This document shows, piece by piece, positions 35,032-63,902 of a stretch of DNA of 64,000 nucleotides (the stretch's first letter is position 1; every line of letters starts with the position of its first letter). The notes under the pieces were generated by a model. The model saw only the letters and a list, made by a program, of their open reading frames with translations. It made no database searches and was not told where the DNA came from. Position numbers and translations under genes: made by a program. This stretch comes from a virus (Duplodnaviria > Caudoviricetes): IMG/VR virus record IMGVR_UViG_3300044611_001018; one strand, written 5' to 3'.

Positions 35032-35039
35032 TATTTATA
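35032..35039 (-). promoter_or_regulatory. Late promoter TATAAATA heading the baseplate operon
   Basis: Exact T4 late consensus 23 nt upstream of the gp25 ATG. Confidence 0.75.
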
Positions 35040-35975: not shown

Positions 35976-36116
35976 TTAACCTTGTCCTCTATACCTCTTA
36001 CGTGCTCCGTTACGAGACGTTGCGGCGTACTTTGTATGTTTACCCATACCTTGCCGAGTTTTTTTGGGTTTTGATTCAATAACAACTTTACTAGTCAGTG
36101 AAGGTCTTTTTGCCAT
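35976..36116 (-). CDS. Small basic protein (46 aa)
   Basis: Manually translated MAKRPSLTSKVVIESKPKKTRQGMGKHTKYAATSRNGARKRYRGQG. Confidence 0.65.
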   Translation of the reverse strand: MAKRPSLTSKVVIESKPKKTRQGMGKHTKYAATSRNGARKRYRGQG

Positions 36117-36118
36117 AG

Positions 36119-36289
36119 TTAATTTTCAAATAATGGTTCAAGTGAAATCAAATTGGGGTCGATATCTTCCCCCGAGAAAAAGCGTTCAGAGAACTCTTGA
36201 AGAATCTCAGTACAGTCTTCAAGAGTCATACTCTGATATAACGCTCTACCATTATAACACACGTTATAAAGTTTCTCAGAGGTACTCAT
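36119..36289 (-). CDS. Hypothetical protein (56 aa)
   Basis: Manually translated MSTSEKLYNVCYNGRALYQSMTLEDCTEILQEFSERFF...; fills the gap exactly. Confidence 0.6.
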   Translation of the reverse strand: MSTSEKLYNVCYNGRALYQSMTLEDCTEILQEFSERFFSGEDIDPNLISLEPLFEN

Positions 36290-36290
36290 A

Positions 36291-37076
36291 TCAGATTACG
36301 CGAGTCTTCTCATGTCCAACGCGAATCCGTGGGTCACACCACGTTTCAATGCCTGCCTCTTTTGCATCTAGACAGAACGATACGTCCTCTCCACACATAT
36401 CTTGAACTGCACCAGATTCAAAGACTTGCATCTTAGGAGCAAACCAAGGATATTCAAGACGTTCAAAGACACCATGACGAATCATAACCCATCCAAAACC
36501 TGTGTAATCCACGGTGAATGGTTTGCGTCTCTTTGCCATAGATTCAGTGGTTTCATGATTCATAACACCACCGTTCTTACGGAAGTCATCCTCTTCCAAC
36601 CAGTGAGCAACTGAAGTAGTTACCCCATCCTCAGTGGCATACCAACCAGCAACGATTTCTTTTTCTTGCTGTGGGATACCTTCTTTGTCTGGTCCAGGTA
36701 CTGCGAGATCGCACAGTTGCCAGAATTTTTCTGTATTAAACACAATGTCATTATCAATCCAAAGTTGATAATCGTATTGTAGCTTACCGTCCCAAGGAAT
36801 TTGCTTAGGTCCACGAAGAACGTTTGCACCAAGACACTTGCAACGTGCAAAGTTAACCATGGAAGAATAATCTTGAGAGATCTGAATACTCATACCATTT
36901 TGTACAAGGTCAAAACACAGTTGTACAAATGATTTCAGAAATTGATAGGAGCAACCACGTCCTGGGAGACAAAAGACGATGCTCTTGCCCCTCATTCTCT
37001 CCCTAATTGCATCATAGTCCCACTGCTCTTGTGGTTGAGTCGGAGCTGTGGCTTTTACGGTGAATCCTTTTGCCAT
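36291..37076 (-). CDS. Glycosyltransferase (GT-A / GT2-like)
   Basis: IVFCLPGRG, WIDNDIVF (DxD), VDYTGFGWVMI, GEDVSFC, RVGHEK. Confidence 0.8.
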   Translation of the reverse strand: MAKGFTVKATAPTQPQEQWDYDAIRERMRGKSIVFCLPGRGCSYQFLKSFVQLCFDLVQNGMSIQISQDYSSMVNFARCKCLGANVLRGPKQIPWDGKLQYDYQLWIDNDIVFNTEKFWQLCDLAVPGPDKEGIPQQEKEIVAGWYATEDGVTTSVAHWLEEDDFRKNGGVMNHETTESMAKRRKPFTVDYTGFGWVMIRHGVFERLEYPWFAPKMQVFESGAVQDMCGEDVSFCLDAKEAGIETWCDPRIRVGHEKTRVI

Positions 37077-37099
37077 GTTAATTAAGTTTCTTCAGGTCA

Positions 37100-37128
37100 A
37101 TTCTAACGTTTAGTTTTTAGTTTGTCAA
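37100..37128 (-). promoter_or_regulatory. Sigma70-type promoter TTGACA-N17-TAGAAT
   Basis: Near-consensus hexamers with a 17-nt spacer upstream of the glycosyltransferase. Confidence 0.75.
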
Positions 37129-37286
37129 TAGGAAGACTCTACCATGAGTTGTCGATTTACTTCGACTTCCTCATAATCAAACTCTTTGTCTTTGAGTTCT
37201 TCCCACTTCTCTATGAATTCGTCTTCAGAGAGAACTGCGTCAACACAATGATTATCTTTGTCATAGATGTGATAAACTTTGTCCAT
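37125..37286 (-). CDS. Hypothetical protein (53 aa)
   Basis: MDKVYHIYDKDNHCVDAVLSEDEF...; GAGG SD before ATG 37286; extended -10 TGCTATAAT at 37321-37329. Confidence 0.65.
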   Translation of the reverse strand: MDKVYHIYDKDNHCVDAVLSEDEFIEKWEELKDKEFDYEEVEVNRQLMVESSY

Positions 37287-37544
37287 ATTAAATCCTCTTG
37301 ACATTTTTATGTATAATGGTATTATAGCATACCCTTTAGGGTTTATACGACCTTCTGAGGGAAATTTTTTTCCCAAAAATTTTTCATATGAAAGTGAAAT
37401 CACTCACTCGAATTGTCACCTCTGTAGGTTAGGGTAGTGATCGATTTTATATACGGGGGGGGCGCAGGGGGCCGCATTAGTATAACTTATGAATCGATTT
37501 AACTGCCATAACGGATACTGATGAATGAAAGTGTCCGCACGAAT

Positions 37545-37572
37545 ATAAAAAACCCCCTCACGAATGAGGGGG
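37545..37572 (-). terminator. Rho-independent terminator closing the early-gene block
   Basis: Minus strand CCCCCTCA-TTCG-TGAGGGGG followed by TTTTTT (UUCG tetraloop). Confidence 0.85.
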
Positions 37573-37583
37573 CAAAGTGTTAA

Positions 37584-37754
37584 TCAGGGCAGGCAACCTT
37601 TGGAGTCAAGTATACCAATGTGTAGAACATTGTTATACAAACCAGCATAAAGTCTGCCGATTGATAACCCGAACTGCTCATCATCTTTCCATGCCTTTGT
37701 ATCAACGCCAAAGTAGAAGATGGCGGCGAATTGTTGAGGAGTAGAGAAGCGCAT
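37584..37754 (-). CDS. Hypothetical protein (56 aa)
   Basis: Manually translated MRFSTPQQFAAIFYFGVDTKAWKDDEQFGLSIGRLYAGLY...; ends just before the terminator. Confidence 0.55.
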   Translation of the reverse strand: MRFSTPQQFAAIFYFGVDTKAWKDDEQFGLSIGRLYAGLYNNVLHIGILDSKGCLP

Positions 37755-37805
37755 TGTGGTGATGATAGTGTTAACGAAGGGGGGGCATTTCTGCCCCCGT
37801 TAAGT

Positions 37806-37946
37806 TTACTCCTCAGGACCGAAAGCACACTCTAGAGAGTACATTTCCAGTTCCTGATCATCATCATAGAATGATGCCCAATCATCCTCAGTGGGGATAT
37901 AAACATCCTCAATCTGAGGGTCACAAACGAAAGAATCGAAGTTCAT
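37806..37946 (-). CDS. Small acidic hypothetical protein
   Basis: MNFDSFVCDPQIEDVY...LECAFGPEE; TAAGAT -10-like box at 37988-37993. Confidence 0.6.
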   Translation of the reverse strand: MNFDSFVCDPQIEDVYIPTEDDWASFYDDDQELEMYSLECAFGPEE

Positions 37947-38034
37947 TTTCAGGTGTGGGGTTGTGCGGGTGTGTCCCGCTTGAATGTATCTTAAGGGGTG
38001 GGGGCACCCTATGGGCACCCCCTGTCACATTTCG

Positions 38035-38295
38035 TTAGATTCCAGAGAGGGCAGCAATCAGGCGGTCACGCTTGCGGATTTGCTCAAAGTTCACAAACCA
38101 CAGATCCCGCTTTCCGTTATCGGAACGGGTGGCACCTAGAACGCCATCCTTTTCGAGGTCAACCATAAGGGCGTGAATGGTGCCCTTATGGCGACGGGGG
38201 TCAAGACCCATAGAGCGCACAAGGTCGCTGCAGGTCTGGGGTCCGTCGTTGATCAGGCGGGTACGGATTGCGGCGCGGATGATGGAAGCGAACAT
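38035..38295 (-). CDS. Putative winged-helix DNA-binding protein
   Basis: GPQTCSDLVRSMGL...KGTIHALMVDLEKDGVL resembles the MarR/IclR-type HTH plus wing pattern. Confidence 0.55.
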   Translation of the reverse strand: MFASIIRAAIRTRLINDGPQTCSDLVRSMGLDPRRHKGTIHALMVDLEKDGVLGATRSDNGKRDLWFVNFEQIRKRDRLIAALSGI

Positions 38296-38359
38296 GGTCG
38301 GTTTGGGGTTGGGCGAGGTCCGTTTGCCTCGCTTGACAGTATCCTAGACGGTCGGGCGG

Positions 38360-38527
38360 TCAGGTCGTGACCAGAACGGGCGAATCGTTACAATCGGAAA
38401 TAATGTTAACTTGCTCAAAAAATTGCATCCATTCCTCATCACTTAAGACGGTGCAGTTCTTTTCAACAAGTTCAGCGATTCTTTCGGCGGGAAGTTTAAA
38501 CCGAAGGCGGGAGGGATAGTGTGTCAT
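38360..38527 (-). CDS. Hypothetical protein (55 aa)
   Basis: Manually translated MTHYPSRLRFKLPAERIAELVEKNC...; ATGA overlap with the upstream ORF. Confidence 0.55.
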   Translation of the reverse strand: MTHYPSRLRFKLPAERIAELVEKNCTVLSDEEWMQFFEQVNIISDCNDSPVLVTT

Positions 38528-38631
38528 TCTTGAATGATGTTAGCGACGGTGTGCAATGTTGCAGCGGTGGTGTTTCTAACTGGTGATGAGAATAGAAACG
38601 CAACCGCAAAAATCAGAAAGAATGTTCTCAT
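38524..38631 (-). CDS. Small hydrophobic protein (35 aa)
   Basis: MRTFFLIFAVAFLFSSPVRNTTAATLHTVANIIQE; ATGA overlaps on both sides. Confidence 0.55.
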   Translation of the reverse strand: MRTFFLIFAVAFLFSSPVRNTTAATLHTVANIIQE

Positions 38632-38789
38632 TTTTGACCCTCACTGAAAGTAACAACCTCAGCAGGAGAACCACAGGAACGATAGAAATCTACCATACGC
38701 TTTGCCTCATCAATTGTGGGGAAAGTTTGCTCCCGCCATTCACAAGAATTGTAGGGAGTTTGGTAGCGAATGGTGATACCGAGTGCCAT
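38628..38789 (-). CDS. Hypothetical protein (53 aa)
   Basis: MALGITIRYQTPYNSCEWREQTFPTIDEAKRMVDFYRSCGSPAEVV... Confidence 0.65.
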   Translation of the reverse strand: MALGITIRYQTPYNSCEWREQTFPTIDEAKRMVDFYRSCGSPAEVVTFSEGQK

Positions 38790-38850
38790 GATCTTGTGGG
38801 TTTGAAGGTGAAGAATTGGGGGGGAATTTCACCCCCCGTTGTTGTTAACC

Positions 38851-39036
38851 TCAGGCAGTTACAACTGCCACAGTGTAACTAGGACCGCCAAGATTGAAGG
38901 TGCCAATCTTAACAGGAACTCCACCGAGTTCAGCACTCCAATCAAACGCGGCATCGTATGCCTGATCTTGAGTGTAGAACCATTCCTGATCAGCAGGAAC
39001 GAAATCGGTGTGGTCGGGGAGAATGTAGAACCGCAT
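38851..39036 (-). CDS. Hypothetical protein (61 aa)
   Basis: MRFYILPD...AYDAAFDWSAELGG; TAGGAT -10 at 39062-39067. Confidence 0.65.
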   Translation of the reverse strand: MRFYILPDHTDFVPADQEWFYTQDQAYDAAFDWSAELGGVPVKIGTFNLGGPSYTVAVVTA

Positions 39037-39109
39037 GGGGGTGTCCCGTGTTGACCTTGGTATCCTACAGCATGGGAGGGGGGCACCCGTGCCCCCCGTT
39101 AACAAAGGT

Positions 39110-39727
39110 TCACACTAGACCTTTGTGTATCCTACGATACGCGACCCATGTAATCGCCTGAACTTGTGCCGCTGAATGATACTTTTCGGTGACGCTTGAG
39201 ATTAACTTAGCAGCGTCACGGTAAGCATCTTGAATCAGCAGGAAAGTTTTGTCTGACATAGAAGGAACTTCTTTCAGGTTAGAAACACTTCCGTTCCAAA
39301 TGTTGTAGGCGTGACCATCAATGCAGGGAGTGTCAGAATTGCCATCCTTTGCAATACAATTGTAGAAGGCAATTGTTTTGTTTCCGCGTAGAACTTTCTC
39401 GATATACTGATCAGAATCGAGTTGCAGTTCAATGATAGTCCGCGCCTTATCTTTGTTGATAGAATAGGTTGAGACTTTCACATTCTCAAACGGAATTTCA
39501 TAACAATAGGCGCGGAGCATTGTTTCAGCATCCTCTACATTTTGATCCCATTTGTTGTTAGGAGAAAGTGCAGCGATAACACCTGCCACGGTGTTAGGGC
39601 AGAAACCATACTTTTCGCCTAAAGTAACACAAACCATGTAGGCGTTGTGATACCATTGGGCGCCCATCTGCCGATCCAGAGTGTTGCTCTGGAAATAGGT
39701 TGCGATGATCGAATCGGTGTGTGCCAT
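39110..39727 (-). CDS. Hypothetical protein, possible HhH-GPD glycosylase-like fold
   Basis: 205 aa; AGVIAALSPNNKW, GNKTIAFY, PCIDGHAYNIW, VQAITWV. Confidence 0.7.
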   Translation of the reverse strand: MAHTDSIIATYFQSNTLDRQMGAQWYHNAYMVCVTLGEKYGFCPNTVAGVIAALSPNNKWDQNVEDAETMLRAYCYEIPFENVKVSTYSINKDKARTIIELQLDSDQYIEKVLRGNKTIAFYNCIAKDGNSDTPCIDGHAYNIWNGSVSNLKEVPSMSDKTFLLIQDAYRDAAKLISSVTEKYHSAAQVQAITWVAYRRIHKGLV

Positions 39728-39900
39728 GGGGGTGGGTTGGCGTTGCCAGAATCCTACAGCATCGGGGGCACCCTGCAACGGGTTTTACCATCAGGGTTTC
39801 TTATGGGTGACATCAGAAATACTTATGAGCCAGGGGTTGACTTTTAGGGGGCACCGCCCCTACGCTAGAGGGCGGGAGGGGTGGGAAGCATACAGGTATA

Positions 39901-39929
39901 AAAAAACCCCGCCATCGGCGGGGTTTTGT
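39901..39929. terminator. Bidirectional Rho-independent terminator
   Basis: AAAAAAA-CCCCGCC-ATC-GGCGGG(G)-TTTTGT: GC stem flanked by A- and T-tracts. Confidence 0.8.
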
Positions 39930-39935
39930 GTTAGA

Positions 39936-40124
39936 TTAGAACTCTACAATCCAGTCAGGATCTTTGTTTAGATTAACCCAGAAGTGGTTTCTACCGTTGT
40001 GACTGGTGAGGAATACTTTATCCCCTTTGTGTTGTTCTACAATACATTCATCAATTCCATCCATTAAATTAGCAAATCTGTTTTTTGCTTTTTTAGATAC
40101 AGGCGTGACGAATGCGGTGTCCAT
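39936..40124 (-). CDS. Hypothetical protein
   Basis: 62 aa; VTPVSKKAKNRFANLMDG...HFWV...DPDW. Confidence 0.7.
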   Translation of the reverse strand: MDTAFVTPVSKKAKNRFANLMDGIDECIVEQHKGDKVFLTSHNGRNHFWVNLNKDPDWIVEF

Positions 40125-40128
40125 GGTG

Positions 40129-40260
40129 TCAGAAATCGATTGGTTCTAGAGTCGCTTGCATTGTATCATCAGAAGCGGCGATGGTGTCAAGAATCTTGAG
40201 GATTTCTTCACCATTGTTACCCTGACGAAGCATTGAAATCAGAATCGAAGCGTTTTCCAT
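40129..40260 (-). CDS. Hypothetical protein (43 aa)
   Basis: Manually translated MENASILISMLRQGNNGEEILKILDTIAA... Confidence 0.6.
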   Translation of the reverse strand: MENASILISMLRQGNNGEEILKILDTIAASDDTMQATLEPIDF

Positions 40261-40272
40261 GATACGTGATAC

Positions 40273-40334
40273 CTAGTCGAGATTTGTAAGTGTGATAAAC
40301 TCGTCGAGATTAAATGTGATAATCTCGACGAGAT
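40273..40334. repeat. Three copies of the palindrome (AT)CTCG[A/T]CGAGAT
   Basis: 40273 CTAGTCGAGATTT, 40300 CTCGTCGAGATT, 40321 AATCTCGACGAGAT; intergenic. Confidence 0.85.
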
Positions 40335-40343
40335 CTGTTGCTA

Positions 40344-40556
40344 TCAGGCAGCGACCAGTTGCTCGCTCTTGATGGCAGCGTTAACAAAGCGACCCACGCT
40401 ACCCTGAGCATTGATGGTGCTGGTCAGTTCGCTAACAAACTGATCAACTTGGGGCACAGCGTAGGTATACTCACGACCACCGTTGAAGGTGATGGTCACT
40501 TTACCATCTTGCACGTCGCTGATGGACTCGATGGCGGAAGAAGTGAAGTTAAACAT
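40344..40556 (-). CDS. KTSC-domain-like protein
   Basis: SSAIESI...ITFNGGREYTYAVP...GSVGRFVNAAIK matches the KTSC pattern. Confidence 0.6.
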   Translation of the reverse strand: MFNFTSSAIESISDVQDGKVTITFNGGREYTYAVPQVDQFVSELTSTINAQGSVGRFVNAAIKSEQLVAA

Positions 40557-40626
40557 AATGAATTCAAAAAGTAAAGGTTTGAGTGAAGTGTTTTGAGCGG
40601 GATGCTTCACCCCCGCTTGTGAACCT

Positions 40627-40655
40627 AGATTAGCATCACCGCCGTGCGGTGTCAA
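40627..40655 (-). promoter_or_regulatory. Sigma70-type promoter TTGACA-N17-TAATCT, with a dyad element just upstream
   Basis: Plus strand AGATTA 40627-32 and TGTCAA 40650-55. Confidence 0.65.
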
Positions 40656-40779
40656 CCTCTTGGACCACTTCGACAACTGTCACAATCTGTTTATCTTCGT
40701 TGAGATAATTTGTTGTGATTTCATTCGGTCCTGTAATTACTTGACCGACAACGTATGCAACAAGCAAGGATTCAATCAT
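40636..40779 (-). CDS. Hypothetical protein (47 aa)
   Basis: MIESLLVAYVVGQVITGPNEITTNYL...; C-terminus reads through the dyad and promoter. Confidence 0.55.
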   Translation of the reverse strand: MIESLLVAYVVGQVITGPNEITTNYLNEDKQIVTVVEVVQEVDTARR

Positions 40780-40782
40780 GAT

Positions 40783-40923
40783 TCAATAATGATGGCGAGA
40801 CATGACACAGTTGGGGTCATTATACCAATCAGAATCTTCATAATCTTTGTATTCTGTTTCTTGATAATCTTCTTCCAACATTGTGGGCATTGGAATGTCG
40901 TTAACCCAGGTGATGTCAGTCAT
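40783..40923 (-). CDS. Small acidic protein (46 aa)
   Basis: MTDITWVNDIPMP...DWYNDPNCVMSRHHY. Confidence 0.6.
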   Translation of the reverse strand: MTDITWVNDIPMPTMLEEDYQETEYKDYEDSDWYNDPNCVMSRHHY

Positions 40924-40944
40924 GAATCTGTGTTGAACAAACGT

Positions 40945-40986
40945 AGTATGGAATGGATTGGGTCAGAAGTCAACCCCCTGACCCAT
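40945..40986 (-). promoter_or_regulatory. Promoter TTGACT-N17-CATACT (copy 1 of a repeated promoter)
   Basis: AGTATG 40945-50, AGTCAA 40968-73; AGTCAACCCCCTGACCCAT is identical to 41668-41686. Confidence 0.7.
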
Positions 40987-40998
40987 AAGGATTGGTTA

Positions 40999-41457
40999 TC
41001 AATCCAGGGTGAATCGCTCAACCCCCATCATGTCGTTATACTGTTGCAACATGGTTTTCAGGGTTTGACCAGCACGATCGAACGATTTCGTGATGACATC
41101 GTTATACTGATCGTAGTATGCAATTTGTCCATGAATACCCATTGCCGAAGCAACAGGATTCTTTCGGAACGATTGAATACCTGTAGCAGCAAGTTTGCGG
41201 TCAAAAACTTTTGCTTGACCGTTGAGAGTATAAGCGCACAGATACTCTTCAAACACAGGTGCAATTTCTTCCTTTGTAAAAGGAACACGCTTTTGATCCT
41301 CAATCGTCAGAGAATCAATTTGTTCTTGAATTGCTTTAGAAACTGCACGGAATCGAATCCGTTCTTCACGCTCATCAAAAGTGTTAATCATGCCAAATTG
41401 CATGACACTGTTGTAGTTGTCCTCGTAGAAGTTCAGATCTTCTTGAGTGAGAGTCAT
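40999..41457 (-). CDS. Hypothetical protein (152 aa)
   Basis: Co-directional ORF from the track. Confidence 0.7.
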   Translation of the reverse strand: MTLTQEDLNFYEDNYNSVMQFGMINTFDEREERIRFRAVSKAIQEQIDSLTIEDQKRVPFTKEEIAPVFEEYLCAYTLNGQAKVFDRKLAATGIQSFRKNPVASAMGIHGQIAYYDQYNDVITKSFDRAGQTLKTMLQQYNDMMGVERFTLD

Positions 41458-41488
41458 AATAAAGAAAAAAGTTGCGGTGGGTGAGCAA

Positions 41489-41620
41489 TCAAATCATACC
41501 ACGGCGACCGAGGTCTGCCCACACATGGGACGGGGCAGCAGCTGGCACACCAGTGGCGGTGGTGTTCTTGACCCATACCATTTGGCGGGTCTTGAGGTCG
41601 GAGGCGCAAACCAGAGTCAT
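41489..41620 (-). CDS. Hypothetical protein (43 aa)
   Basis: MTLVCASDLKTRQMVWV...; downstream of promoter 41645-41673. Confidence 0.55.
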   Translation of the reverse strand: MTLVCASDLKTRQMVWVKNTTATGVPAAAPSHVWADLGRRGMI

Positions 41621-41644
41621 GGGGTGTTCCCGTGAACTGATGTC

Positions 41645-41686
41645 AGTATGGGTCAGAACGGCAGCAAAGTCAACCCCCTGACCCAT
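41645..41686 (-). promoter_or_regulatory. Promoter TTGACT-N17-CATACT (copy 2)
   Basis: AGTATG 41645-50, AGTCAA 41668-73. Confidence 0.7.
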
Positions 41687-41695
41687 TAGCGTTTC

Positions 41696-41869
41696 TTATC
41701 CTTCCAGAAGTTCAGGATAGTATTCTTCACATTCAGTGATCAATTCTTCTTCAGAATACTTATCATAACCCTCCTCAAGATAATCATAACAAAGTTGGGT
41801 CATTGTCTTAAGGTCCATGTCATCCAACATCTGCTGAATAAGTGCAGTTTGAAGTTCAGAACGGTTCAT
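41696..41869 (-). CDS. Hypothetical protein (57 aa)
   Basis: MNRSELQTALIQQMLDDMDLKTM...EEYYPELLEG. Confidence 0.65.
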   Translation of the reverse strand: MNRSELQTALIQQMLDDMDLKTMTQLCYDYLEEGYDKYSEEELITECEEYYPELLEG

Positions 41870-41871
41870 GA

Positions 41872-42051
41872 TCAAAAACGAATGATAGGGTGGTCAAGAT
41901 CGAGGACATCACATTCCTCAGTTGAAAACACTAACTCTACACTTGCTTGATAATACTCATCGGGTTCATCTTCAGAGCAGATAGCAACATCCTGATTCAG
42001 TTGATCTTCACTAAGTTGTTGCAACTGTTCGAGCAGTTCTTTGTATTTCAT
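41872..42051 (-). CDS. Hypothetical protein (59 aa)
   Basis: MKYKELLEQLQQLSEDQLNQDV...VLDLDHPIIRF; ATGA overlap. Confidence 0.65.
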   Translation of the reverse strand: MKYKELLEQLQQLSEDQLNQDVAICSEDEPDEYYQASVELVFSTEECDVLDLDHPIIRF

Positions 42052-42263
42052 TGAAGAACGTGACGGTAATCGATGGACTTAATGCACCAACCTGATGCAG
42101 TAGAGATTTCCTCTACAAGGTCATCCTCATCATCAGCATCCCAGATTTGACCAACATAAACCTCATTGAGGCGTTCTTCAGTCATAATCTGGTCTGATTC
42201 ATCCCAACCCTCTTCATCATCAAGAGAGCAATCGAATTGAATTGAAGTGATTTGATACTTCAT
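42048..42263 (-). CDS. Hypothetical acidic protein
   Basis: 71 aa; WDADDEDDLVEEISTASGWCIKSIDY. Confidence 0.7.
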   Translation of the reverse strand: MKYQITSIQFDCSLDDEEGWDESDQIMTEERLNEVYVGQIWDADDEDDLVEEISTASGWCIKSIDYRHVLQ

Positions 42264-42344
42264 GATGTTCTGGTGGTGAACAAATGAATGATAGCGCGTG
42301 TGCGCGTCTCGTCGAGATTTTATGGACAGTTCACTGACTGTCCA

Positions 42345-42494
42345 CTAGACAAAAAATTCCTCCAGATAATAGTCTACAGTGACTTCCAGTTTTGCTGCTT
42401 CTTCTTCAATTGCAGCAGTGAATGCCTCATCAATTGACATCACTTCCCTTACAGATTGATGTTCACAAAAGAGGTCAAGAGTAGAATCATTCAT
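42345..42494 (-). CDS. Hypothetical protein (49 aa)
   Basis: EEEAAKLEVTVDYYLEEF; stop abuts the dyad element. Confidence 0.6.
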   Translation of the reverse strand: MNDSTLDLFCEHQSVREVMSIDEAFTAAIEEEAAKLEVTVDYYLEEFFV

Positions 42495-42711
42495 TGGTGT
42501 AAGGTTTGAGAGTGATACGATCTGCCACACACATGATCAGTTCTGCTAGAATTTCATCATCAACTTGACCAAGTTTGTCAACAATGATGCCACCAATGTT
42601 GGTGTGAAGAAATTCAATCCAATCACATGTTTCTACAAGTTCTTCTGCAACTTCTTCAACAAGTGCTGCAGCAATTCTGTTGACTGATTTGTTAGAGAGT
42701 GACATGATCAA
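42487..42711 (-). CDS. Hypothetical protein
   Basis: 74-aa ORF overlapping its neighbours. Confidence 0.65.
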   Translation of the reverse strand: MIMSLSNKSVNRIAAALVEEVAEELVETCDWIEFLHTNIGGIIVDKLGQVDDEILAELIMCVADRITLKPYTNE

Positions 42712-42857
42712 CCCTCCCCTGCAATGTTCATTGCGTCAATGACCTTATCATAAAGATCAGAGACATCGCAACCCACACGCTCACTCACCTCATCCCAATC
42801 ATCATGGAAGGAGATTAAATCAGCAAGGGCACTGAGTTCGTTGATGGTGAAGTTCAT
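42708..42857 (-). CDS. Hypothetical protein (49 aa)
   Basis: MNFTINELSALADLISFHDDWDEVSERVG...; follows the TATACT -10 at 42880-85. Confidence 0.6.
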   Translation of the reverse strand: MNFTINELSALADLISFHDDWDEVSERVGCDVSDLYDKVIDAMNIAGEG

Positions 42858-42923
42858 TGGAGTGGTGTGAACTGAAGTCAGTATAAGGGGTGGAGGGGCG
42901 CCTGTGCGCCCCGTTGTGGACAG

Positions 42924-43388
42924 TTACGCTGCTGTCACATACCCAGGGATTTCGACACGCTCTACAGGTCCCCAACCAATCTTATATGCCTTCCAGTTAC
43001 CATTGAGGTCATACAGGTAAGCATACTCTTCGCCACCCATTTTACCAGAGACAAACATATCGAAGTCGGTGACATCTGGTTCATTATTCTCACCACGCTC
43101 TGAATGATACAGCGGTTGTGCATCACGAGTGTGGGAATAAGACCAACTGCCAGCATCATCTTCGATGATCTTGCCATTCTCATCACGAAGAGCAGCACTC
43201 TCCCACGTATGAGTTGTGCGAAGAGATGACATTGAACCACCGTCGATGAGATCTTGCACATCATCGCGGTTCTGATAATGATCTACCAGAATGCGACCGT
43301 TGCCTTCTACGTAACCATCCCAGTGGCAGTAAACGCTAACCACAGAATGGTCGGGGAGTTCGTAACCGATGCGTGAACGGGTTCCCAT
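42924..43388 (-). CDS. Conserved phage hypothetical protein
   Basis: 154 aa; MGTRSRIG...SVYCHWDGY...EEYAYLY. Confidence 0.8.
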   Translation of the reverse strand: MGTRSRIGYELPDHSVVSVYCHWDGYVEGNGRILVDHYQNRDDVQDLIDGGSMSSLRTTHTWESAALRDENGKIIEDDAGSWSYSHTRDAQPLYHSERGENNEPDVTDFDMFVSGKMGGEEYAYLYDLNGNWKAYKIGWGPVERVEIPGYVTAA

Positions 43389-43637
43389 GGGGTGTTGTGT
43401 TCAGGACTCCGCCAATATAACCGCTGCAGACCCACCCTGCAACCAACCAGTGGACTGTCCAAAAACTGGCACATCATCGGATTAATTCCGATCTTCTATG
43501 GTATCTTATAAGGACAACCAGCGCCCTTATAGGGAACGGCAGAGGGGTATCTGCCTGATCAATACATCGTCACTGAACCTGCAAACTTTTTTATAAAAAG
43601 TATACAAAAACATAAAAAGACCTTATGTGCCCCCACC

Positions 43638-43667
43638 TTGACACATAAGGCCCTTCTATGTTATACT
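43638..43667 (+). promoter_or_regulatory. Counter-oriented sigma70-type promoter TTGACA-N18-(TGT)TATACT
   Basis: -35 lies inside the inverted repeat CCTTATGTG (43621-29) / CACATAAGG (43642-50); extended -10. Confidence 0.55.
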
Positions 43668-43677
43668 GAGGAGTTAA

Positions 43678-43848
43678 CTACCAGATATCAGAATCCAAAT
43701 CCTCAATATAAGCATCGCACCTCTCACCAGATTCAAGTTTAAACATCTTCTCCCAATTAATATTATGGGGGTCAAAGTCACCAAGAACGTCGAGTTCCAG
43801 AGTGACGCGATAACGATGCTTACGTGCTTGATCGTAAATGGTTGCCAT
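43678..43848 (-). CDS. Hypothetical protein (56 aa)
   Basis: Manually translated MATIYDQARKHRYRVTLELDVLGDFDPHNINWEKMFKLE...; has its own promoter. Confidence 0.7.
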   Translation of the reverse strand: MATIYDQARKHRYRVTLELDVLGDFDPHNINWEKMFKLESGERCDAYIEDLDSDIW

Positions 43849-43872
43849 GAGAACTTTGTGCGAACTGTAGTA

Positions 43873-43901
43873 ATCTTACCCCACACTCACCGTTGTGTCA
43901 A
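43873..43901 (-). promoter_or_regulatory. Sigma70-type promoter TTGACA-N17-TAAGAT
   Basis: Plus strand ATCTTA 43873-78 and TGTCAA 43896-901. Confidence 0.7.
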
Positions 43902-43995
43902 TACCTTATAAGAATGTATTGATAACGATGGTTTATATATGACATAAGGAGACCTTATATGATACTGTGTGCTTGTTATATCATGATTCGCACAC

Positions 43996-44145
43996 ATCTC
44001 GACGAGATTCTTATATAATGATTCTATGATACTGTGTGCGTCTCGTCGAGATTTATGATGCGTGTCTCGTCGAGATTCTTATATAATGATTCTGTTATAC
44101 TATGATATACTCGTCGAGATTCTCATCGCGGGTCTCGTCGAGATT
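43996..44145. repeat. Iteron-like array: five TCTCG[A/T]CGAGAT palindromes in a degenerate 68-bp tandem duplication
   Basis: Centres at 44002, 44046, 44070, 44114, 44138 (spacing 44/24/44/24); CGAGATTCTTATATAATGATTCT repeated at 44003 and 44071. Confidence 0.9.
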
Positions 44146-44387: not shown

Positions 44388-45365
44388 CTATTTTAACCAT
44401 AATTTGTCAATTTTCATCCTATTTTCAAAGATATTATATCTTAATGCACAATGATGACTTTGAGGTGGTACAATGATTGGATTATAATAACCAGTGAATT
44501 CTCTATAACATTTTTTAAAATCTAATATATGTTCACCAGACCTTAAAAATGGATGAACTACAATCAAATAAGGTTCATCAGTCTCTGGTAATTTAAACTG
44601 AATGACACGATTTGATTGATAATGATCTGGATTATTTGCATCAAATATATGAACACCTATATGTTCAAATTGATGAGTTTGATAGATGTTTTGTAATGCA
44701 TTAATAACATTATTCTCATTAATTGGTTTATCCATAATATGTGTATAATGATGAAAATGACTTGATGATTGAATCACCTCATTATAATACTCAGCAAACT
44801 TAGGAGATAAACCAAGATCTAATGTTACACCTTCTGAGATACCTGGATTATGCTCAACATTAACCAAATGAGAATATTCTTTAGGTGTAAGTCTTACAAT
44901 ACTAAACTGAATGATATATTCAGATGGTAGCATTTTAAATGGCAATGGTACATCAAATGCTGTACCCATCATATCATTCCAAATATAAGACCCTACCAGT
45001 TCATGAAAGAGAATATCAATATCTTTGACATTATACGAATTAAATTTAGATGCAATAAACTCAGTATTAATGACTTCAATCTTTTTAGACAATCCCATTC
45101 TTTTTGCTACATTTTGAATATGTGCCGCAGACTTAGGATTTTGTTCAAAACACGTTACATGCTTTGCTCCATGCTTTAATGCTAAAAATGCTAATACACC
45201 ACTACCTGACCCTACATCAATGCAACGTTTACCCTTACACTCTTTAAGTATCTGATCATAATATCCTAAACGCATTGATTCATTGATCAATGCAATTCCG
45301 TTATACTGAGAACTCATTCTATTTTGTTGTCTCATTCTTAAACTATAATTCCGATCAAAGTCCAT
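44388..45365 (-). CDS. SAM-dependent methyltransferase, protein-arginine-methyltransferase-like
   Basis: Motif I IDVGSGSGVL, post-I HVTCFE, DILFHELVG, followed by a beta-rich C-terminus. Confidence 0.8.
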   Translation of the reverse strand: MDFDRNYSLRMRQQNRMSSQYNGIALINESMRLGYYDQILKECKGKRCIDVGSGSGVLAFLALKHGAKHVTCFEQNPKSAAHIQNVAKRMGLSKKIEVINTEFIASKFNSYNVKDIDILFHELVGSYIWNDMMGTAFDVPLPFKMLPSEYIIQFSIVRLTPKEYSHLVNVEHNPGISEGVTLDLGLSPKFAEYYNEVIQSSSHFHHYTHIMDKPINENNVINALQNIYQTHQFEHIGVHIFDANNPDHYQSNRVIQFKLPETDEPYLIVVHPFLRSGEHILDFKKCYREFTGYYNPIIVPPQSHHCALRYNIFENRMKIDKLWLK

Positions 45366-45627
45366 TAAACGGTATTTGCTGATTCTCTGGTAATTTATAA
45401 ATCTTCTGACCCTCTATCTTATAACTTCCTGGTGGTAGTCCTATTTGACCAGGTAGAGCGTTCTCTACAATACTCTCTACATCAATCACAGCATCATTCA
45501 ATGGTGTCACTTTACGATATGCTCGATTGACAGGATTCAATGCTACCATCATCTGTGCATCCTCTAGCAATGCACATTGACATACATTCTCTCCTGTATT
45601 TAAATTCACAACAACATAATAACTCAT
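45355..45627 (-). CDS. Hypothetical protein
   Basis: 90-aa ORF overlapping the methyltransferase start. Confidence 0.7.
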   Translation of the reverse strand: MSYYVVVNLNTGENVCQCALLEDAQMMVALNPVNRAYRKVTPLNDAVIDVESIVENALPGQIGLPPGSYKIEGQKIYKLPENQQIPFNGL

Positions 45628-45633
45628 GATAAA

Positions 45634-46023
45634 TTAATCCAATTTTGATACTATTTGATTACCATTGAAATGATTTTTCAATTTCATTACTTGATCTCTA
45701 AACTTATTTTCTGGACAACGCTGCCTACCCAAATTAAATAACCTCAAAGCAATAACAACATTATTGGGAATATAACCTTTAGATTCATCCAATCTTTCTA
45801 AACTAGGTGCAAGTGGATTATTCCTCTCATAAACACCGTAAGGGTCAATTGGATATTCAGTCCAATAGCATTTACCATTTTGTTGTTTATATTGTTTTAT
45901 AAGATAAAATTCATCTATACTAACATCTAATGGTTCTGTTCTTTTAATACCATTCTTTTTTTCTTGTCCAGGTCGGGCGGCAGTCTTTGCTTTTGCTATG
46001 AGAGTCTTCCAAGGATTTCTCAC
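45634..46023 (-). CDS. HNH-like endonuclease
   Basis: QQNGKCYWT...PSLERLDESKGYIPNNVVIALRLFNLG resembles the SxDRIDxxKGY..dNv..c...N HNH variant. Confidence 0.65.
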   Translation of the reverse strand: MRNPWKTLIAKAKTAARPGQEKKNGIKRTEPLDVSIDEFYLIKQYKQQNGKCYWTEYPIDPYGVYERNNPLAPSLERLDESKGYIPNNVVIALRLFNLGRQRCPENKFRDQVMKLKNHFNGNQIVSKLD

Positions 46024-47201
46024 ACCTTTACCTCAATCACTTGACTTGCACATTTACCACCAAAACCAAAACTATTGTTCACAGTCCTTAGAACCTTTGA
46101 TGTTGTCTTCAAATCACATGAAGTCCTTACAAGTTGCTTTGAGACATCATACTCTGCATTCTCCAAATTATAACATCCAGGAATCACACAATTCCTCATG
46201 GATAGGATAGAGTAAATACACTCCAATACAGATGCAGCAGCAAGTGTATGACCAATCTTTGACTTTGGTGCATAGATTGGAACATCAGGCAAATAATCTT
46301 GCAATACCTGATATTCAATCTCATCACCAATCGGTGTACTCGTAGCATGTGCAGAGATTGCATCAATTGTATCAGGTTCAATACCATCCAATGCCTTATC
46401 CAATGCAAGTTTTGCACCAACACCATTTGTTGCAGGACTTGTTAAATCAAATGCATCACTTGCACAACCAACAGGATATAACTTTGCATACACATTTGAA
46501 TCATATTGTTGTACTTTATCTTTTGATTGCAAAATTAAAATACCCGCGCCTTCTCCCATCACAAACCCTTCACGATTCTCATCAAAAGGACAATTGTGAT
46601 TACCCAGTGCGCCAATGCCTGCGAAATACTTCAATGCCATCTCAAATACACCAGCATCAGCACCACCTACCACAACATAGTCATACTCATCCAATATCCT
46701 CATTGCATAATCAATTGAATACATTCCAGTCGCACACGATGCATACAATGCCACTGATGCACCATGAAACTTATAATGACTCGTAATCTGACCTACAATC
46801 ATATCTGGAATACGATTGACAATCTTGAATGGATTCACTCTCTTATTCTCTTTAAACCGTTGGAAGTTACCATCAAGGAACTCCACATCATTAGAGACAC
46901 TTGATACAATCACGGCAACATTCGATGAGTGTTTTAGATTTGCCATCTTCAATGCCTGCTCAGTTGCATGAAGTGCCATCTGTTGCGCTCTGGTCATGTT
47001 AGCGGTTATTTTCGGCGTAAACGCCTCGGGAAGTAGAATATCATGCAAACATGGAATACCATACTGAATCTTATGCTCACCCATAAAATCAAGTTTCTGA
47101 ATCGGATTATAATCATTAATCATATTCAGAAAACAATTCCCAGGTCGATTACCCAATGCATCGACCATACCATAACCAACAACATAAGCAGGATTGACCA
47201 T
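46020..47201 (-). CDS. fabF: Beta-ketoacyl-ACP synthase (KAS II/I, thiolase fold)
   Basis: Catalytic Cys (ASCATG), His (ISAHATSTPIGD), His (KSKIGH); GEGAG; C-terminal NSFGFGG. Confidence 0.9.
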   Translation of the reverse strand: MVNPAYVVGYGMVDALGNRPGNCFLNMINDYNPIQKLDFMGEHKIQYGIPCLHDILLPEAFTPKITANMTRAQQMALHATEQALKMANLKHSSNVAVIVSSVSNDVEFLDGNFQRFKENKRVNPFKIVNRIPDMIVGQITSHYKFHGASVALYASCATGMYSIDYAMRILDEYDYVVVGGADAGVFEMALKYFAGIGALGNHNCPFDENREGFVMGEGAGILILQSKDKVQQYDSNVYAKLYPVGCASDAFDLTSPATNGVGAKLALDKALDGIEPDTIDAISAHATSTPIGDEIEYQVLQDYLPDVPIYAPKSKIGHTLAAASVLECIYSILSMRNCVIPGCYNLENAEYDVSKQLVRTSCDLKTTSKVLRTVNNSFGFGGKCASQVIEVKV

Positions 47202-47209
47202 ACTCTGTA

Positions 47210-47413
47210 TTAACCTCCAAATCCCTTGACTGGTTTCTTCTTCTCTATTCTATCAAGAACTTCTACATGTGACAACTCATCGGATTGCATCCAAATCTGA
47301 TACACTTCCATATAATCATCTACAATGATACGCTCACCCTGATTTGATACAATCGCATAACGATGTTTGTCATACGGTGCATCAGATGTTCCAGTAAAGT
47401 TCCTCAATTTCAT
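47210..47413 (-). CDS. Hypothetical protein
   Basis: 67 aa; DAPYDKHRY...KGFGG. Confidence 0.65.
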   Translation of the reverse strand: MKLRNFTGTSDAPYDKHRYAIVSNQGERIIVDDYMEVYQIWMQSDELSHVEVLDRIEKKKPVKGFGG

Positions 47414-48045: not shown

Positions 48046-48258
48046 TTATGACCCTCCGTAAACATAATCTATAATACCAGCAGCATGATTCACACCTTCG
48101 ATGATAGTGAACTTAGCATACCTGTCAAACTCATCAACATGATACTCACTAAACTCTTTGACAAACAACTCACGGGCGTGGTCTTTGGATTCAGCAGCAA
48201 GAACTACCATCCCACTGGTCCAGTCGGAGAGAATGTTGTTGATGATGTAAAGATTCAT
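48046..48258 (-). CDS. Hypothetical protein
   Basis: 70-aa ORF in an overlapping run. Confidence 0.65.
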   Translation of the reverse strand: MNLYIINNILSDWTSGMVVLAAESKDHARELFVKEFSEYHVDEFDRYAKFTIIEGVNHAAGIIDYVYGGS

Positions 48259-49304: not shown

Positions 49305-49498
49305 TTGTCCTTCAGTAGATTGTGATAATGTTGTACTTCTGAGTTTTCAAAATCTTTACATCGTGGATAGAATACACCATCTCGATAGCAAGACTTCTCT
49401 GGTTCATAGTAAACCTGAGATGATTTGGTGTAATTTCTCTCACAGACGTAAGTTCCATTCACACACAATTGCAAAAGAGTGAATAGTGTGGAGTACAT
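49301..49498 (-). CDS. Hypothetical protein
   Basis: TAATG overlap with the RlpA stop; CYRDGVFYPRC. Confidence 0.6.
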   Translation of the reverse strand: MYSTLFTLLQLCVNGTYVCERNYTKSSQVYYEPEKSCYRDGVFYPRCKDFENSEVQHYHNLLKDK

Positions 49499-49806
49499 TA
49501 TACCACAACTCTCCAACAAACAGTAGCATTACCTCTTTTAGAAGATTCGATGTGAGCAAATGCAGCGTAACTCAAATCCAAATCAGCATGTGAGTAAGGA
49601 CCACGGTCATTCACTCTCACAATTACTTGTTTACCATTATCTTGATTGGTCACTCGTATGCGTGTACCCATAGGTAGATAAGGATGAGCTGCAGTCCAAC
49701 GATAAGCATTAAACCGCTCACCATTTGCCGTAATTTGTCCATGAAATCCATCTCCAATTCCATAAAAAGTGGCGATACCACAAGCAAGACCAGCAATGAT
49801 TGACAT
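49498..49806 (-). CDS. rlpA: RlpA-family lytic transglycosylase (DPBB domain)
   Basis: ATFYG...TANGERFN...TAAHPYLPMGTRIRVTN..NGK.VIVRVNDRGPY...DLS. Confidence 0.85.
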   Translation of the reverse strand: MSIIAGLACGIATFYGIGDGFHGQITANGERFNAYRWTAAHPYLPMGTRIRVTNQDNGKQVIVRVNDRGPYSHADLDLSYAAFAHIESSKRGNATVCWRVVV

Positions 49807-49886
49807 GTTTGGTGAATGAGGCATAAGCATCATAACCTCACCAGAGGTGCCTACGTGCCCCTGTGTGCCACTTGTTTTGCTGTCTA

Positions 49887-50091: not shown

Positions 50092-51231
50092 TTAACTGAC
50101 AACTGTAAATGAACGTTGGTCGGGATTCTCTAATCCTATGTAGTGTGGTTTATCAAAAAATAATGCTGCAAGATCTCTAGTTTGGTCATAACCATCAAGA
50201 TCGATTTTAATAGCACCTAATCCAATCTCTGCAAAGGCATTTCTAGTATCCTCATCATGCCCTTGCATCCAATATTTTGGATAGATAACTTTCTTACTAT
50301 TAGATAATTCTACGCCCCACATACCAAAAGAACTATTTGCTGCAATATGATAATCACACATAGACATCAAGCATAGTTCAAATGAATAATTATACAAATT
50401 ATTTGCAATTTTCTCTTTATATGTTGGATGCAATTCTTTTACAAGTCTCACCATCTCTTGATTCAATTCTTCTTGAGTTGGAGTAGATGGCATCAAATTA
50501 TCATAGGCATGTTTAGCTAATGCTACTTTGTAATCAAATCTACATTCTCCAGAAGCATCTACTAACCTATCCAATTCTTGACCAACATCACAATTAATTA
50601 ATTCATTATCGTTGAATATATCAAGAACAAACGTAAATCTTTCTGGATCACTTGCTGTTAAAATTGGATTTGTTAGAATATAATCTTTAACGTTACAAAA
50701 GATTAGAACTGGGATGTTTGGTGGCAGTAATTCCAATGCCTCTTTATAATAATCATCATCAATTAAAAACATTCCAGATCTAATATCTTCAAAATCACCT
50801 CTACGAAGATGCATTGAGATTACTTCTTGACCATCAAACTTTGACATAAACTGACGGCATTTATCCACAACTTCTGGTCTAAACCGCAATTCTTTTTTAA
50901 CAGATTCAAAATTAATAGAATCAACCATACTTTTAACAGTAGGATACCCATATAATTCACAGTTGTCCTCTACCATTGCAACAACTTCTTCAAAAGAATG
51001 GTCATCCAAAAACTCAATGGACTTTAAATCAGCATCAAGTTCATCTTTAATACTGTTAAATTGCAAATTAGTAAATGTATTTCTAAGTGCCTTTAATCCA
51101 TTTGTATTGATAGTATAACTATACCCTGTTCTATTTGCAATAGAACGCATCAATACATATGAAGATATCTGGTATCCCAATCCAGTTCCAGTAGCAGCAA
51201 ATTCTTGATGATATTTAATCATATTGCACAA
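50092..51231 (-). CDS. Glycosyltransferase family 11 (alpha-1,2-fucosyltransferase-like)
   Basis: GTGLGYQ, SMHLRRGD, DYYKEA, IAANSSFGMWG motifs of GT11. Confidence 0.8.
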   Translation of the reverse strand: MCNMIKYHQEFAATGTGLGYQISSYVLMRSIANRTGYSYTINTNGLKALRNTFTNLQFNSIKDELDADLKSIEFLDDHSFEEVVAMVEDNCELYGYPTVKSMVDSINFESVKKELRFRPEVVDKCRQFMSKFDGQEVISMHLRRGDFEDIRSGMFLIDDDYYKEALELLPPNIPVLIFCNVKDYILTNPILTASDPERFTFVLDIFNDNELINCDVGQELDRLVDASGECRFDYKVALAKHAYDNLMPSTPTQEELNQEMVRLVKELHPTYKEKIANNLYNYSFELCLMSMCDYHIAANSSFGMWGVELSNSKKVIYPKYWMQGHDEDTRNAFAEIGLGAIKIDLDGYDQTRDLAALFFDKPHYIGLENPDQRSFTVVS

Positions 51232-63812: not shown

Positions 63813-63902
63813 TTGTGTTTCGCATTACTATTTATACAAGAAAAGGTGCCCGAAGACACCTAATCTCTGCTATGGTTGCGAAACACAAGCACTACTATTT
63901 AT
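63813..63902 (-). promoter_or_regulatory. Late promoter TATAAATA inside a 12-bp inverted repeat that covers the endonuclease leader
   Basis: TATTTATA 63829-36; arms TTGTGTTTCGCA 63813-24 and TGCGAAACACAA 63877-88; second ATAAATA at 63896-902. Confidence 0.7.
63837..63861 (-). terminator. Intrinsic terminator with UUCG loop
   Basis: Minus strand AGGTGTC-TTCG-GGCACCT-TTTCTT. Confidence 0.7.

Follow-up and report, generated by a model that had tools for sequence, protein, structure and literature searches.

Why should a cyanophage carry an enzyme of fatty acid elongation, and is that enzyme a borrowed host FabF or something else? The question is raised by a 64,000-nucleotide stretch of the IMG/VR virus record IMGVR_UViG_3300044611_001018 (Duplodnaviria; Caudoviricetes), hereafter called the window. 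At 46020..47201 on its minus strand, the window encodes a phage-type, FabF-like β-ketoacyl synthase (KS) of 393 aa with catalytic Cys156, His285, Lys313, His318 and Phe380. An earlier note on this DNA had given the same coordinates and an intact open reading frame (ORF), both of which stood; the strand needed correction, as the ORF runs from ATG to stop on the minus strand and the plus-strand frame is riddled with stops. We propose, with a probability of roughly 0.55, that the protein is a stand-alone elongating KS from a phage-specific branch of FabF/FabB, which would act on the acyl carrier protein (ACP) and malonyl-ACP of the host.

The class of the enzyme was addressed through its domains, predicted structure and conserved residues. 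Both KS domains matched Pfam (PF00109, 89 bits, 5e-25; PF02801, 79 bits, 4e-22; cut-off 20.8 bits), and residues 6–388 aligned end to end with solved FabF chains (phmmer, E 2e-48). An AlphaFold2 model built from 29 family sequences reached a mean pLDDT (predicted local distance difference test) of 94.3. Its top Foldseek matches were bacterial and mitochondrial FabF/KAS II structures with template modelling (TM) scores of 0.90–0.93; a few unspecified synthases were also listed, and FabB appeared from about rank 46. On these sequence and model comparisons, it is close to certain that the KS belongs to the full-length, two-domain elongating β-ketoacyl synthases of the thiolase superfamily. The full Cys-His-His triad described earlier was indeed present (LYASCATG, Cys156; SAHATSTP, His285; KSKIGH, Lys313 and His318), together with the NSFGFGG motif (Phe380).

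Residue conservation was then read from 67 family members with 34%–90% identity, mapped onto E. coli FabF, whose numbering is used here for family positions. All 67 members keep C163, H303, T305, T307, D311, E314, K335, H340, E349, F400 and G402, and D265, T270, P272, F202, N396 and S397 are nearly invariant. Studies of elongating ketosynthases assign acyl loading, decarboxylation and gating to these residues (PMC9006962, PMC7138838). In the window's own protein, C156, H285, H318, K313 and F380 are the residues invariant in all 67 members, so that the feature set of a decarboxylating, elongating-type KS is complete. The ACP-docking positions K65, R127 and K128 retain basic residues across the family, and a role of K65 in ACP docking has been reported (PMC7138838). 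In seven pairs of close phage copies, the ratio of nonsynonymous to synonymous substitutions (dN/dS) was 0.07–0.28, which, as measured on these sequence pairs, shows that the KS is under purifying selection.

This enzyme is not a FabF in the strict sense. Its score against the NCBIfam fabF equivalog TIGR03150 was 245.3 bits (cut-off 493.75), and that against NF005589 was 245.8 bits (cut-off 387). The FabB model NF005935 (146.5 bits, cut-off 630), the KasA model (146 bits, cut-off 560) and the polyketide synthase KS model NF005490 (140 bits, cut-off 445) were likewise far from reached, as was every other KS model. No second KS (KS-beta/chain-length factor) and no ACP, as expected of a type II polyketide pair, was found in the 64-kb window. 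Identity was 28% to E. coli FabF, 26.5% to E. coli FabB and 26%–27% to canonical FabF of Deinococcales, and the cyanobacterial KAS II structure 1E5M scored lower against the KS (114 bits) than FabF of Listeria and E. coli (162–169 bits). Given these low identities and the lower score of 1E5M, which represents cyanobacteria in this comparison, nothing points to a recent acquisition of the KS from a cyanobacterial host.

A phylogeny against bacterial FabF and FabB had been suggested as a check of the earlier assignment. In a tree of 91 rows (IQ-TREE quick search, PMSF mixture model), the window's KS fell into a single clade of 67 rows, supported by an SH-aLRT of 100 and borne on a stem 1.07 changes per column long. 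E. coli FabF and FabB, the canonical FabF of Deinococcales and other bacterial KS lie outside it. Long branches in the tree leave the deeper order within the clade unsure. This clade holds viral contigs, unnamed metagenome proteins and Deinococcales copies. We define the phage-type KS clade by membership in this group together with KSKIGH, GFGG[KR]C and Ser/Thr at position 108, and the window's KS belongs to it by both tree and signatures. Thus, the term 'FabF-type' used in the earlier note holds for an intact ketosynthase, whereas a strict FabF is contradicted by the sub-cut-off score, the lack of Ile108 and the separate, mostly viral clade.

The clade is widespread among viruses. In a pattern scan of IMG/VR, at least 359 stretches were found to code for relatives; more than 120 clusters at 90% identity match it at 54%–98% identity, and more distant single-domain representatives have 34%–51% identity. 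The exact protein of the window is recorded on 29 contigs of up to 258 kb. Matches to a phage collection were only about 23%–35% identical in tblastn, none of them from a cyanophage, and many came from unannotated fragments or from bacterial-assembly records filed as phages; megablast of window positions 42–52 kb against the same collection gave no match. The nearest related viral record (G001), a 31%-complete fragment, contained no KS. Among 185,579 species genomes, matches with > 40% identity were confined to 12–13 metagenome-assembled genomes (MAGs) labelled 'Deinococcales bacterium' (52%–60%) and one 'Flavobacteriales' contig. The latter (L100; NYWQ01000054.1, 6.5 kb) was considered as a second cellular lineage and rejected as a mis-binned fragment of a T4-like phage, because it encodes a T4 gp5-type baseplate hub/lysozyme and a phage NifU-like gene in addition to the KS. 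As far as these searches reach, the phage-type KS clade is almost wholly viral, and among cellular genomes it turned up solely in a narrow group of Deinococcales MAGs.

The Deinococcales loci (L087–L098, L172–L176) carry a chromosomal phage-type KS that is 52%–60% identical to that of the window. They are truly bacterial, with an MFS (major facilitator superfamily) transporter, a subtilase, GidA, HrcA and a PASTA protein nearby. Each of five MAGs also encodes a canonical FabF (559–574 bits, above the cut-off). The second KS stands alone without a partner gene, in a neighbourhood that varies among MAGs, and 150 further genomes sampled from the phylum to which Deinococcales belong yielded no copy of it. 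The isolate codes of these MAGs suggest stream or glacier samples. In the tree, the Deinococcales copies are nested among viral sequences; in an approximately unbiased (AU) test, placing them outside all viral rows cost 40.6 log-likelihood units (p 0.066). Transfer from a phage to a Deinococcales bacterium is thus favoured by the sequence data, though not established.

Could the gene nevertheless be an artefact, either a misassembled bacterial fragment, as the earlier note had allowed, or a decaying, inactive gene? By its gene content, the window is a T4-like cyanomyovirus: it encodes a T4-type large terminase, neck and sheath proteins, baseplate wedge proteins and two giant structural ORFs, and the terminase is 79%–80% identical to those of S-SM2 and P-TIM68, myoviruses of Synechococcus and Prochlorococcus. 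No Rfam matches and no tRNAs were found in the window. Genes on both sides of the KS have matches in phage families (DUF7441/phrog_897, phrog_1609, phrog_3322, phrog_1987 and phrog_24927), and the region is colinear with two independent IMG/VR contigs in the same gene order at 82%–87% DNA identity. The flanks are therefore phage DNA, and the suspicion of misassembly falls away. No support for an artefact was found other than a GC content of the KS gene (39%) slightly above the window mean (35%), which lies within the local range of 30%–44%. The intact ORF, the complete set of catalytic residues, dN/dS well below 1 and the recurrence of the exact protein on 29 contigs make this explanation scarcely credible. 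As a metabolic gene in phage DNA with phage flanks and under purifying selection, the KS has the marks of an auxiliary metabolic gene.

If the gene is genuine, with what partners does its product work? Single E. coli queries were searched by tblastn against the window and by phmmer (--max) against its 572 ORFs, and the queries AcpP, FabD, FabG, FabH, PlsX, FabZ, FabI, LpxA and LpxD matched only the KS itself in the 64-kb window. The absence of ACP, FabG and FabZ from the window, observed earlier, was thus borne out at the sensitivity of single-sequence searches. A weak AcpP match in the ORF at 42345–42536 (E 0.14) was rejected as an ACP, as it lacks the DSL serine motif. A search of five related viral records, of which the largest is 119 kb long and 59% complete, revealed no PP-binding domain. 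With neither a carrier protein nor a further fab gene encoded in the window, the simplest reading of the gene content is that the KS uses host acyl-ACP.

Our preferred reading, a stand-alone elongating KS on host substrates, could work as follows. The KS would be made, probably early in infection, from host-type promoters, and dock the acidic acyl carrier protein of the host. Cys156 would then take up an acyl chain, which the enzyme would join to host malonyl-ACP in a decarboxylating condensation, using His285, His318, Thr287, Thr289 and the Phe380 gate. The phage enzyme would thereby duplicate or take over the single irreversible reaction in the type II fatty acid cycle of the host. The likely benefit would be a supply of acyl chains for membrane lipids that is sustained or re-tuned while host protein synthesis is shut down; for this physiological role, we see about even odds. 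Host ACP use, expression timing and physiological role are the parts of the proposal that we infer. Sequence comparisons within the family lend some weight to it: a link to lipids is seen elsewhere, with desaturases nearby and AspH/LpxO-family hydroxylases adjoining the KS, and the bacterial stand-alone copies beside canonical FabF also count in its favour.

Several points weigh against this reading. Of the residues that contact ACP, K69 and R206 have not been kept in the family. The back gate of FabF, Ile108, is replaced by Ser or Thr in the phage-type family (Ser103 in the window's KS; S 37, T 11, L 7 and A 4 in the family), with retention of its partner residue F202. Furthermore, the GSGIGG loop of FabF has become S-S/T-V-S/T-N-D, KSMTGH (M337/T338) has become KSKIGH, and GFGGTN (T403/N404) has become GFGGKC. 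Because the back gate and these three motifs differ, the substrate range may not be that of FabF. Two further positions are changed: K or R stands at the position of F133, which we take to line the acyl pocket of FabF, and D stands at that of H268. A non-enveloped phage has no obvious reason to profit from more fatty acid elongation. In addition, the partner search covered the 64-kb window, and an ACP or partner enzymes may be encoded elsewhere in the phage genome. Given the intact catalytic residues, the family-specific changes and the dN/dS values of 0.07–0.28, the KS looks like a working enzyme whose substrate range has possibly shifted.

The same changes admit a bolder proposal, which we offer tentatively and consider unlikely as it stands. 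The phage-type KS clade might be an old family maintained by viruses and used to make acyl chains specific to infection, with a substrate range unlike that of any cellular FabF or FabB; Deinococcales would have captured it from phages. Behind this proposal are the change of the back gate from Ile108 to Ser/Thr, a charged side chain in place of F133 and the rewired gating loops. Its users would be phages of cyanobacteria, relatives of SAR11 and other hosts, with the KS acting alone or with desaturases and hydroxylases.

Such companions bring up another explanation, namely that the KS carries out the condensation in a phage-specific tailoring pathway leading to a modified lipid or a lipid-like small molecule. 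It would be assisted by oxygenases of the phage, by a SpeD-like decarboxylase, by an amidinotransferase or by a desaturase; in this phage, the genes of such partners would have to lie beyond the window. To survey neighbourhoods, the ORFs of 81 viral KS loci were clustered. A fatty acid desaturase (PF00487) lies within 5 kb of the KS in 24 of the 81 loci, and a SpeD-like gene (PF02675) follows it in 16. In other branches than that of the window, AspH/LpxO-family hydroxylase genes (PF05118) adjoin the KS in tandem; tandem arrays of these genes or of cluster c2 (208 aa) occur within 3 kb in 32/81 loci. Cluster c2 (ca. 208 aa), with up to four tandem copies directly 5' of the KS in 24/81 loci (including L017, L019, L050 and L054), had no Pfam match at E values up to 1, and hhalign did not relate it to the AspH-like clusters. 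These associations favour a tailoring pathway. However, no partner gene is common to all 81 loci, and the window's own KS clade has small phage ORFs as neighbours, with no desaturase, AspH/LpxO, c2 or SpeD-like gene near the KS; none of these families was found anywhere in the 64-kb window. The five related viral records, including the nearest, contain no desaturase, and a single one has an AspH match, which is below the threshold. Moreover, AspH-type genes are common in such phages generally (PMC7029224), and their adjacency to the KS may be partly due to chance. On balance, we regard a tailoring pathway as rather unlikely for this phage, although not negligible.

The genes next to the KS in the window bear on a further suggestion of the earlier note, in which the KS and a neighbouring methyltransferase jointly make a small methylated acyl or polyketide product. 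Directly 3' of the KS lies a free-standing HNH/endonuclease VII-like endonuclease gene (45634..46023, minus strand; phrog_3322, E 4e-37). It forms a 392-bp insertion precisely between the KS stop codon and the next ORF and is missing from the related loci L007 and L008; on sequence grounds, it looks like a homing endonuclease inserted without damage to either neighbour. In L007 and L008, the next ORF (45355..45627, minus strand; 90 aa) follows directly on the KS stop codon; considered as an ACP, it was rejected because it matches no family and lacks a DSL serine motif. The S-adenosylmethionine-dependent methyltransferase follows (44388..45365, minus strand; 325 aa) and resembles protein arginine methyltransferases. 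Such an enzyme is unusual in a cyanophage.

A joint product would be consistent with the shared strand and the distance of at most 1.7 kb between the two genes in the window and in L008. Nevertheless, the best solved relatives of the methyltransferase are eukaryote-type PRMT7, CARM1 and PRMT1 (E 2e-6 to 1e-4) rather than methyltransferases of polyketide or fatty acid synthesis. The gene occurs in only two of the 81 KS loci: it is present in L008 and absent from the other 79, including L007, where ca. 130 bp stand in its place despite a KS that is 91% identical. The HNH gene and the 90-aa ORF lie in between, and no ACP, chain-length factor or thioesterase accompanies the pair. Judged from these loci, the methyltransferase is a variable cassette and not a conserved partner of the KS; the two are neighbours by an accident of a variable region and form no operon with a shared product. 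For lack of synteny, the joint product is thus largely refuted and can be considered highly improbable.

On the 5' side, a small phage gene of the DUF7441 family (phrog_897; 47210..47413, minus strand) lies directly upstream of the KS in its closest relatives only, and its cluster was found in 11/81 loci. A Shine-Dalgarno sequence, GGAGG (47214..47218, minus strand), read directly from the sequence, precedes the KS ATG at 47201 by 12 nt and falls within the final codons of the DUF7441 gene; because of this overlap, the two genes probably share one transcript. Further upstream, 2–4 kb 5' of the KS, are genes for a DPBB/RlpA-like protein (PF03330, 7e-23; 49498–49833, minus strand) and a GT11-like glycosyltransferase (phrog_2644; 50092–51231, minus strand), both conserved in L007, L011 and L012.

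When in infection is the KS expressed? The T4-type late promoter word TATAAATA has only two copies in the 64-kb window, against 7.9 in shuffled sequences. Both are on the minus strand just 5' of gene starts (35032–35039 and 63829–63836), and the word occurs nowhere between 35040 and 63828, a span that includes the block of small minus-strand genes at 36–63 kb. The best sigma-70-like candidate, TTGACA-16-TATCAT (48101..48128, minus strand; 11 of 12 consensus matches), lies 5' of the gene run that contains the KS, and a strong terminator-like hairpin of 20 pairs followed by a T run (43612..43659, minus strand) lies 3' of it. Because TATAAATA is absent from the block and sigma-70-like candidates are present, expression of the KS is probably early or middle, with consensus matches as the basis for the promoters. 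Within the same block, positions 36000–44000 are packed with very small minus-strand ORFs and have a GC content of 42%–49%, compared with ca. 31%–35% elsewhere.

A gene that stands alone and is probably expressed early could also serve host take-over. The KS would then tie up host ACP or malonyl-ACP, or decarboxylate malonyl-ACP, and so throttle host fatty acid synthesis, with the result that carbon, ATP and NADPH become available to phage replication. Overproduction of FabF blocks fatty acid synthesis in E. coli, and cyanophages redirect carbon and NADPH to nucleotides, both of which fit this idea. Against it, the entire condensation machinery, including the acyl-loading Cys and the gating loops, is invariant across a deep family, whereas a binder or a simple decarboxylase needs less, and decarboxylases of the chain-length-factor type replace the Cys. 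The desaturases that co-occur with the KS likewise point to making lipids rather than stopping their synthesis. We therefore consider a take-over device improbable and retain the elongating KS on host substrates as the preferred reading.

These results have consequences for the interpretation of viromes. Virus-encoded 'fabF' has been listed as an auxiliary metabolic gene in the freshwater pelagimyophages PMP-D (PMC7029224), in virome surveys (PMC10653327) and in an ocean catalogue of such genes (PMC11360552), and fatty acid biosynthesis has been named a viral 'hot-spot' pathway among these studies. Counts of viral 'fabF' in ocean and lake surveys are used as evidence that phages reprogramme lipid synthesis. 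The KS of this cyanophage appears not to be a FabF borrowed from the host; its clade is deep, kept by selection and almost wholly viral, with substrate-gating signatures of its own. Accordingly, KEGG 'fabF' matches in viromes should not be taken as ordinary FabF activity. The literature searched yielded no paper that deals with the clade or its signature residues, reports it from cyanomyoviruses or assays its activity. If the KS shifts chain length or feeds modified lipids, acyl-chain elongation would join desaturases as a means of phage control over host membranes. The signature residues offer a concrete set for tests by complementation, chain-length profiling and ACP specificity.

Comparison with known systems helps to place the enzyme. 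The viral 'fabF' genes listed to date, known by automatic annotation only, are FabF-like genes on contigs of T4-like and other phages, sometimes with a desaturase, and in this respect are like the KS of the window. The Deinococcales KS belongs to the same clade and stands alone, as in the window; it differs in being chromosomal and in residing in MAGs that also hold canonical FabF. FabB (E. coli 1FJ4) has the fold and the triad in common with the KS, and the phage enzyme is FabB-like in having Asp at the FabF H268 position and Gly at the R206 position; in contrast, it has Ser at position 108, where FabB has Gly, and does not group with FabB in the tree. FabF itself (E. coli 1KAS/2GFW, B. subtilis 4LS5, Listeria 5SXO and P. 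aeruginosa 4B7V) has the same thiolase fold (TM 0.90–0.93). Compared with it, the KS is ca. 20 residues shorter, with several loops trimmed, while both have the Cys-His-His triad, Lys335, Thr305/Thr307, Asp311/Glu314, the Phe400 gate, the GFGG of loop 1 and the Asp265 of loop 2.

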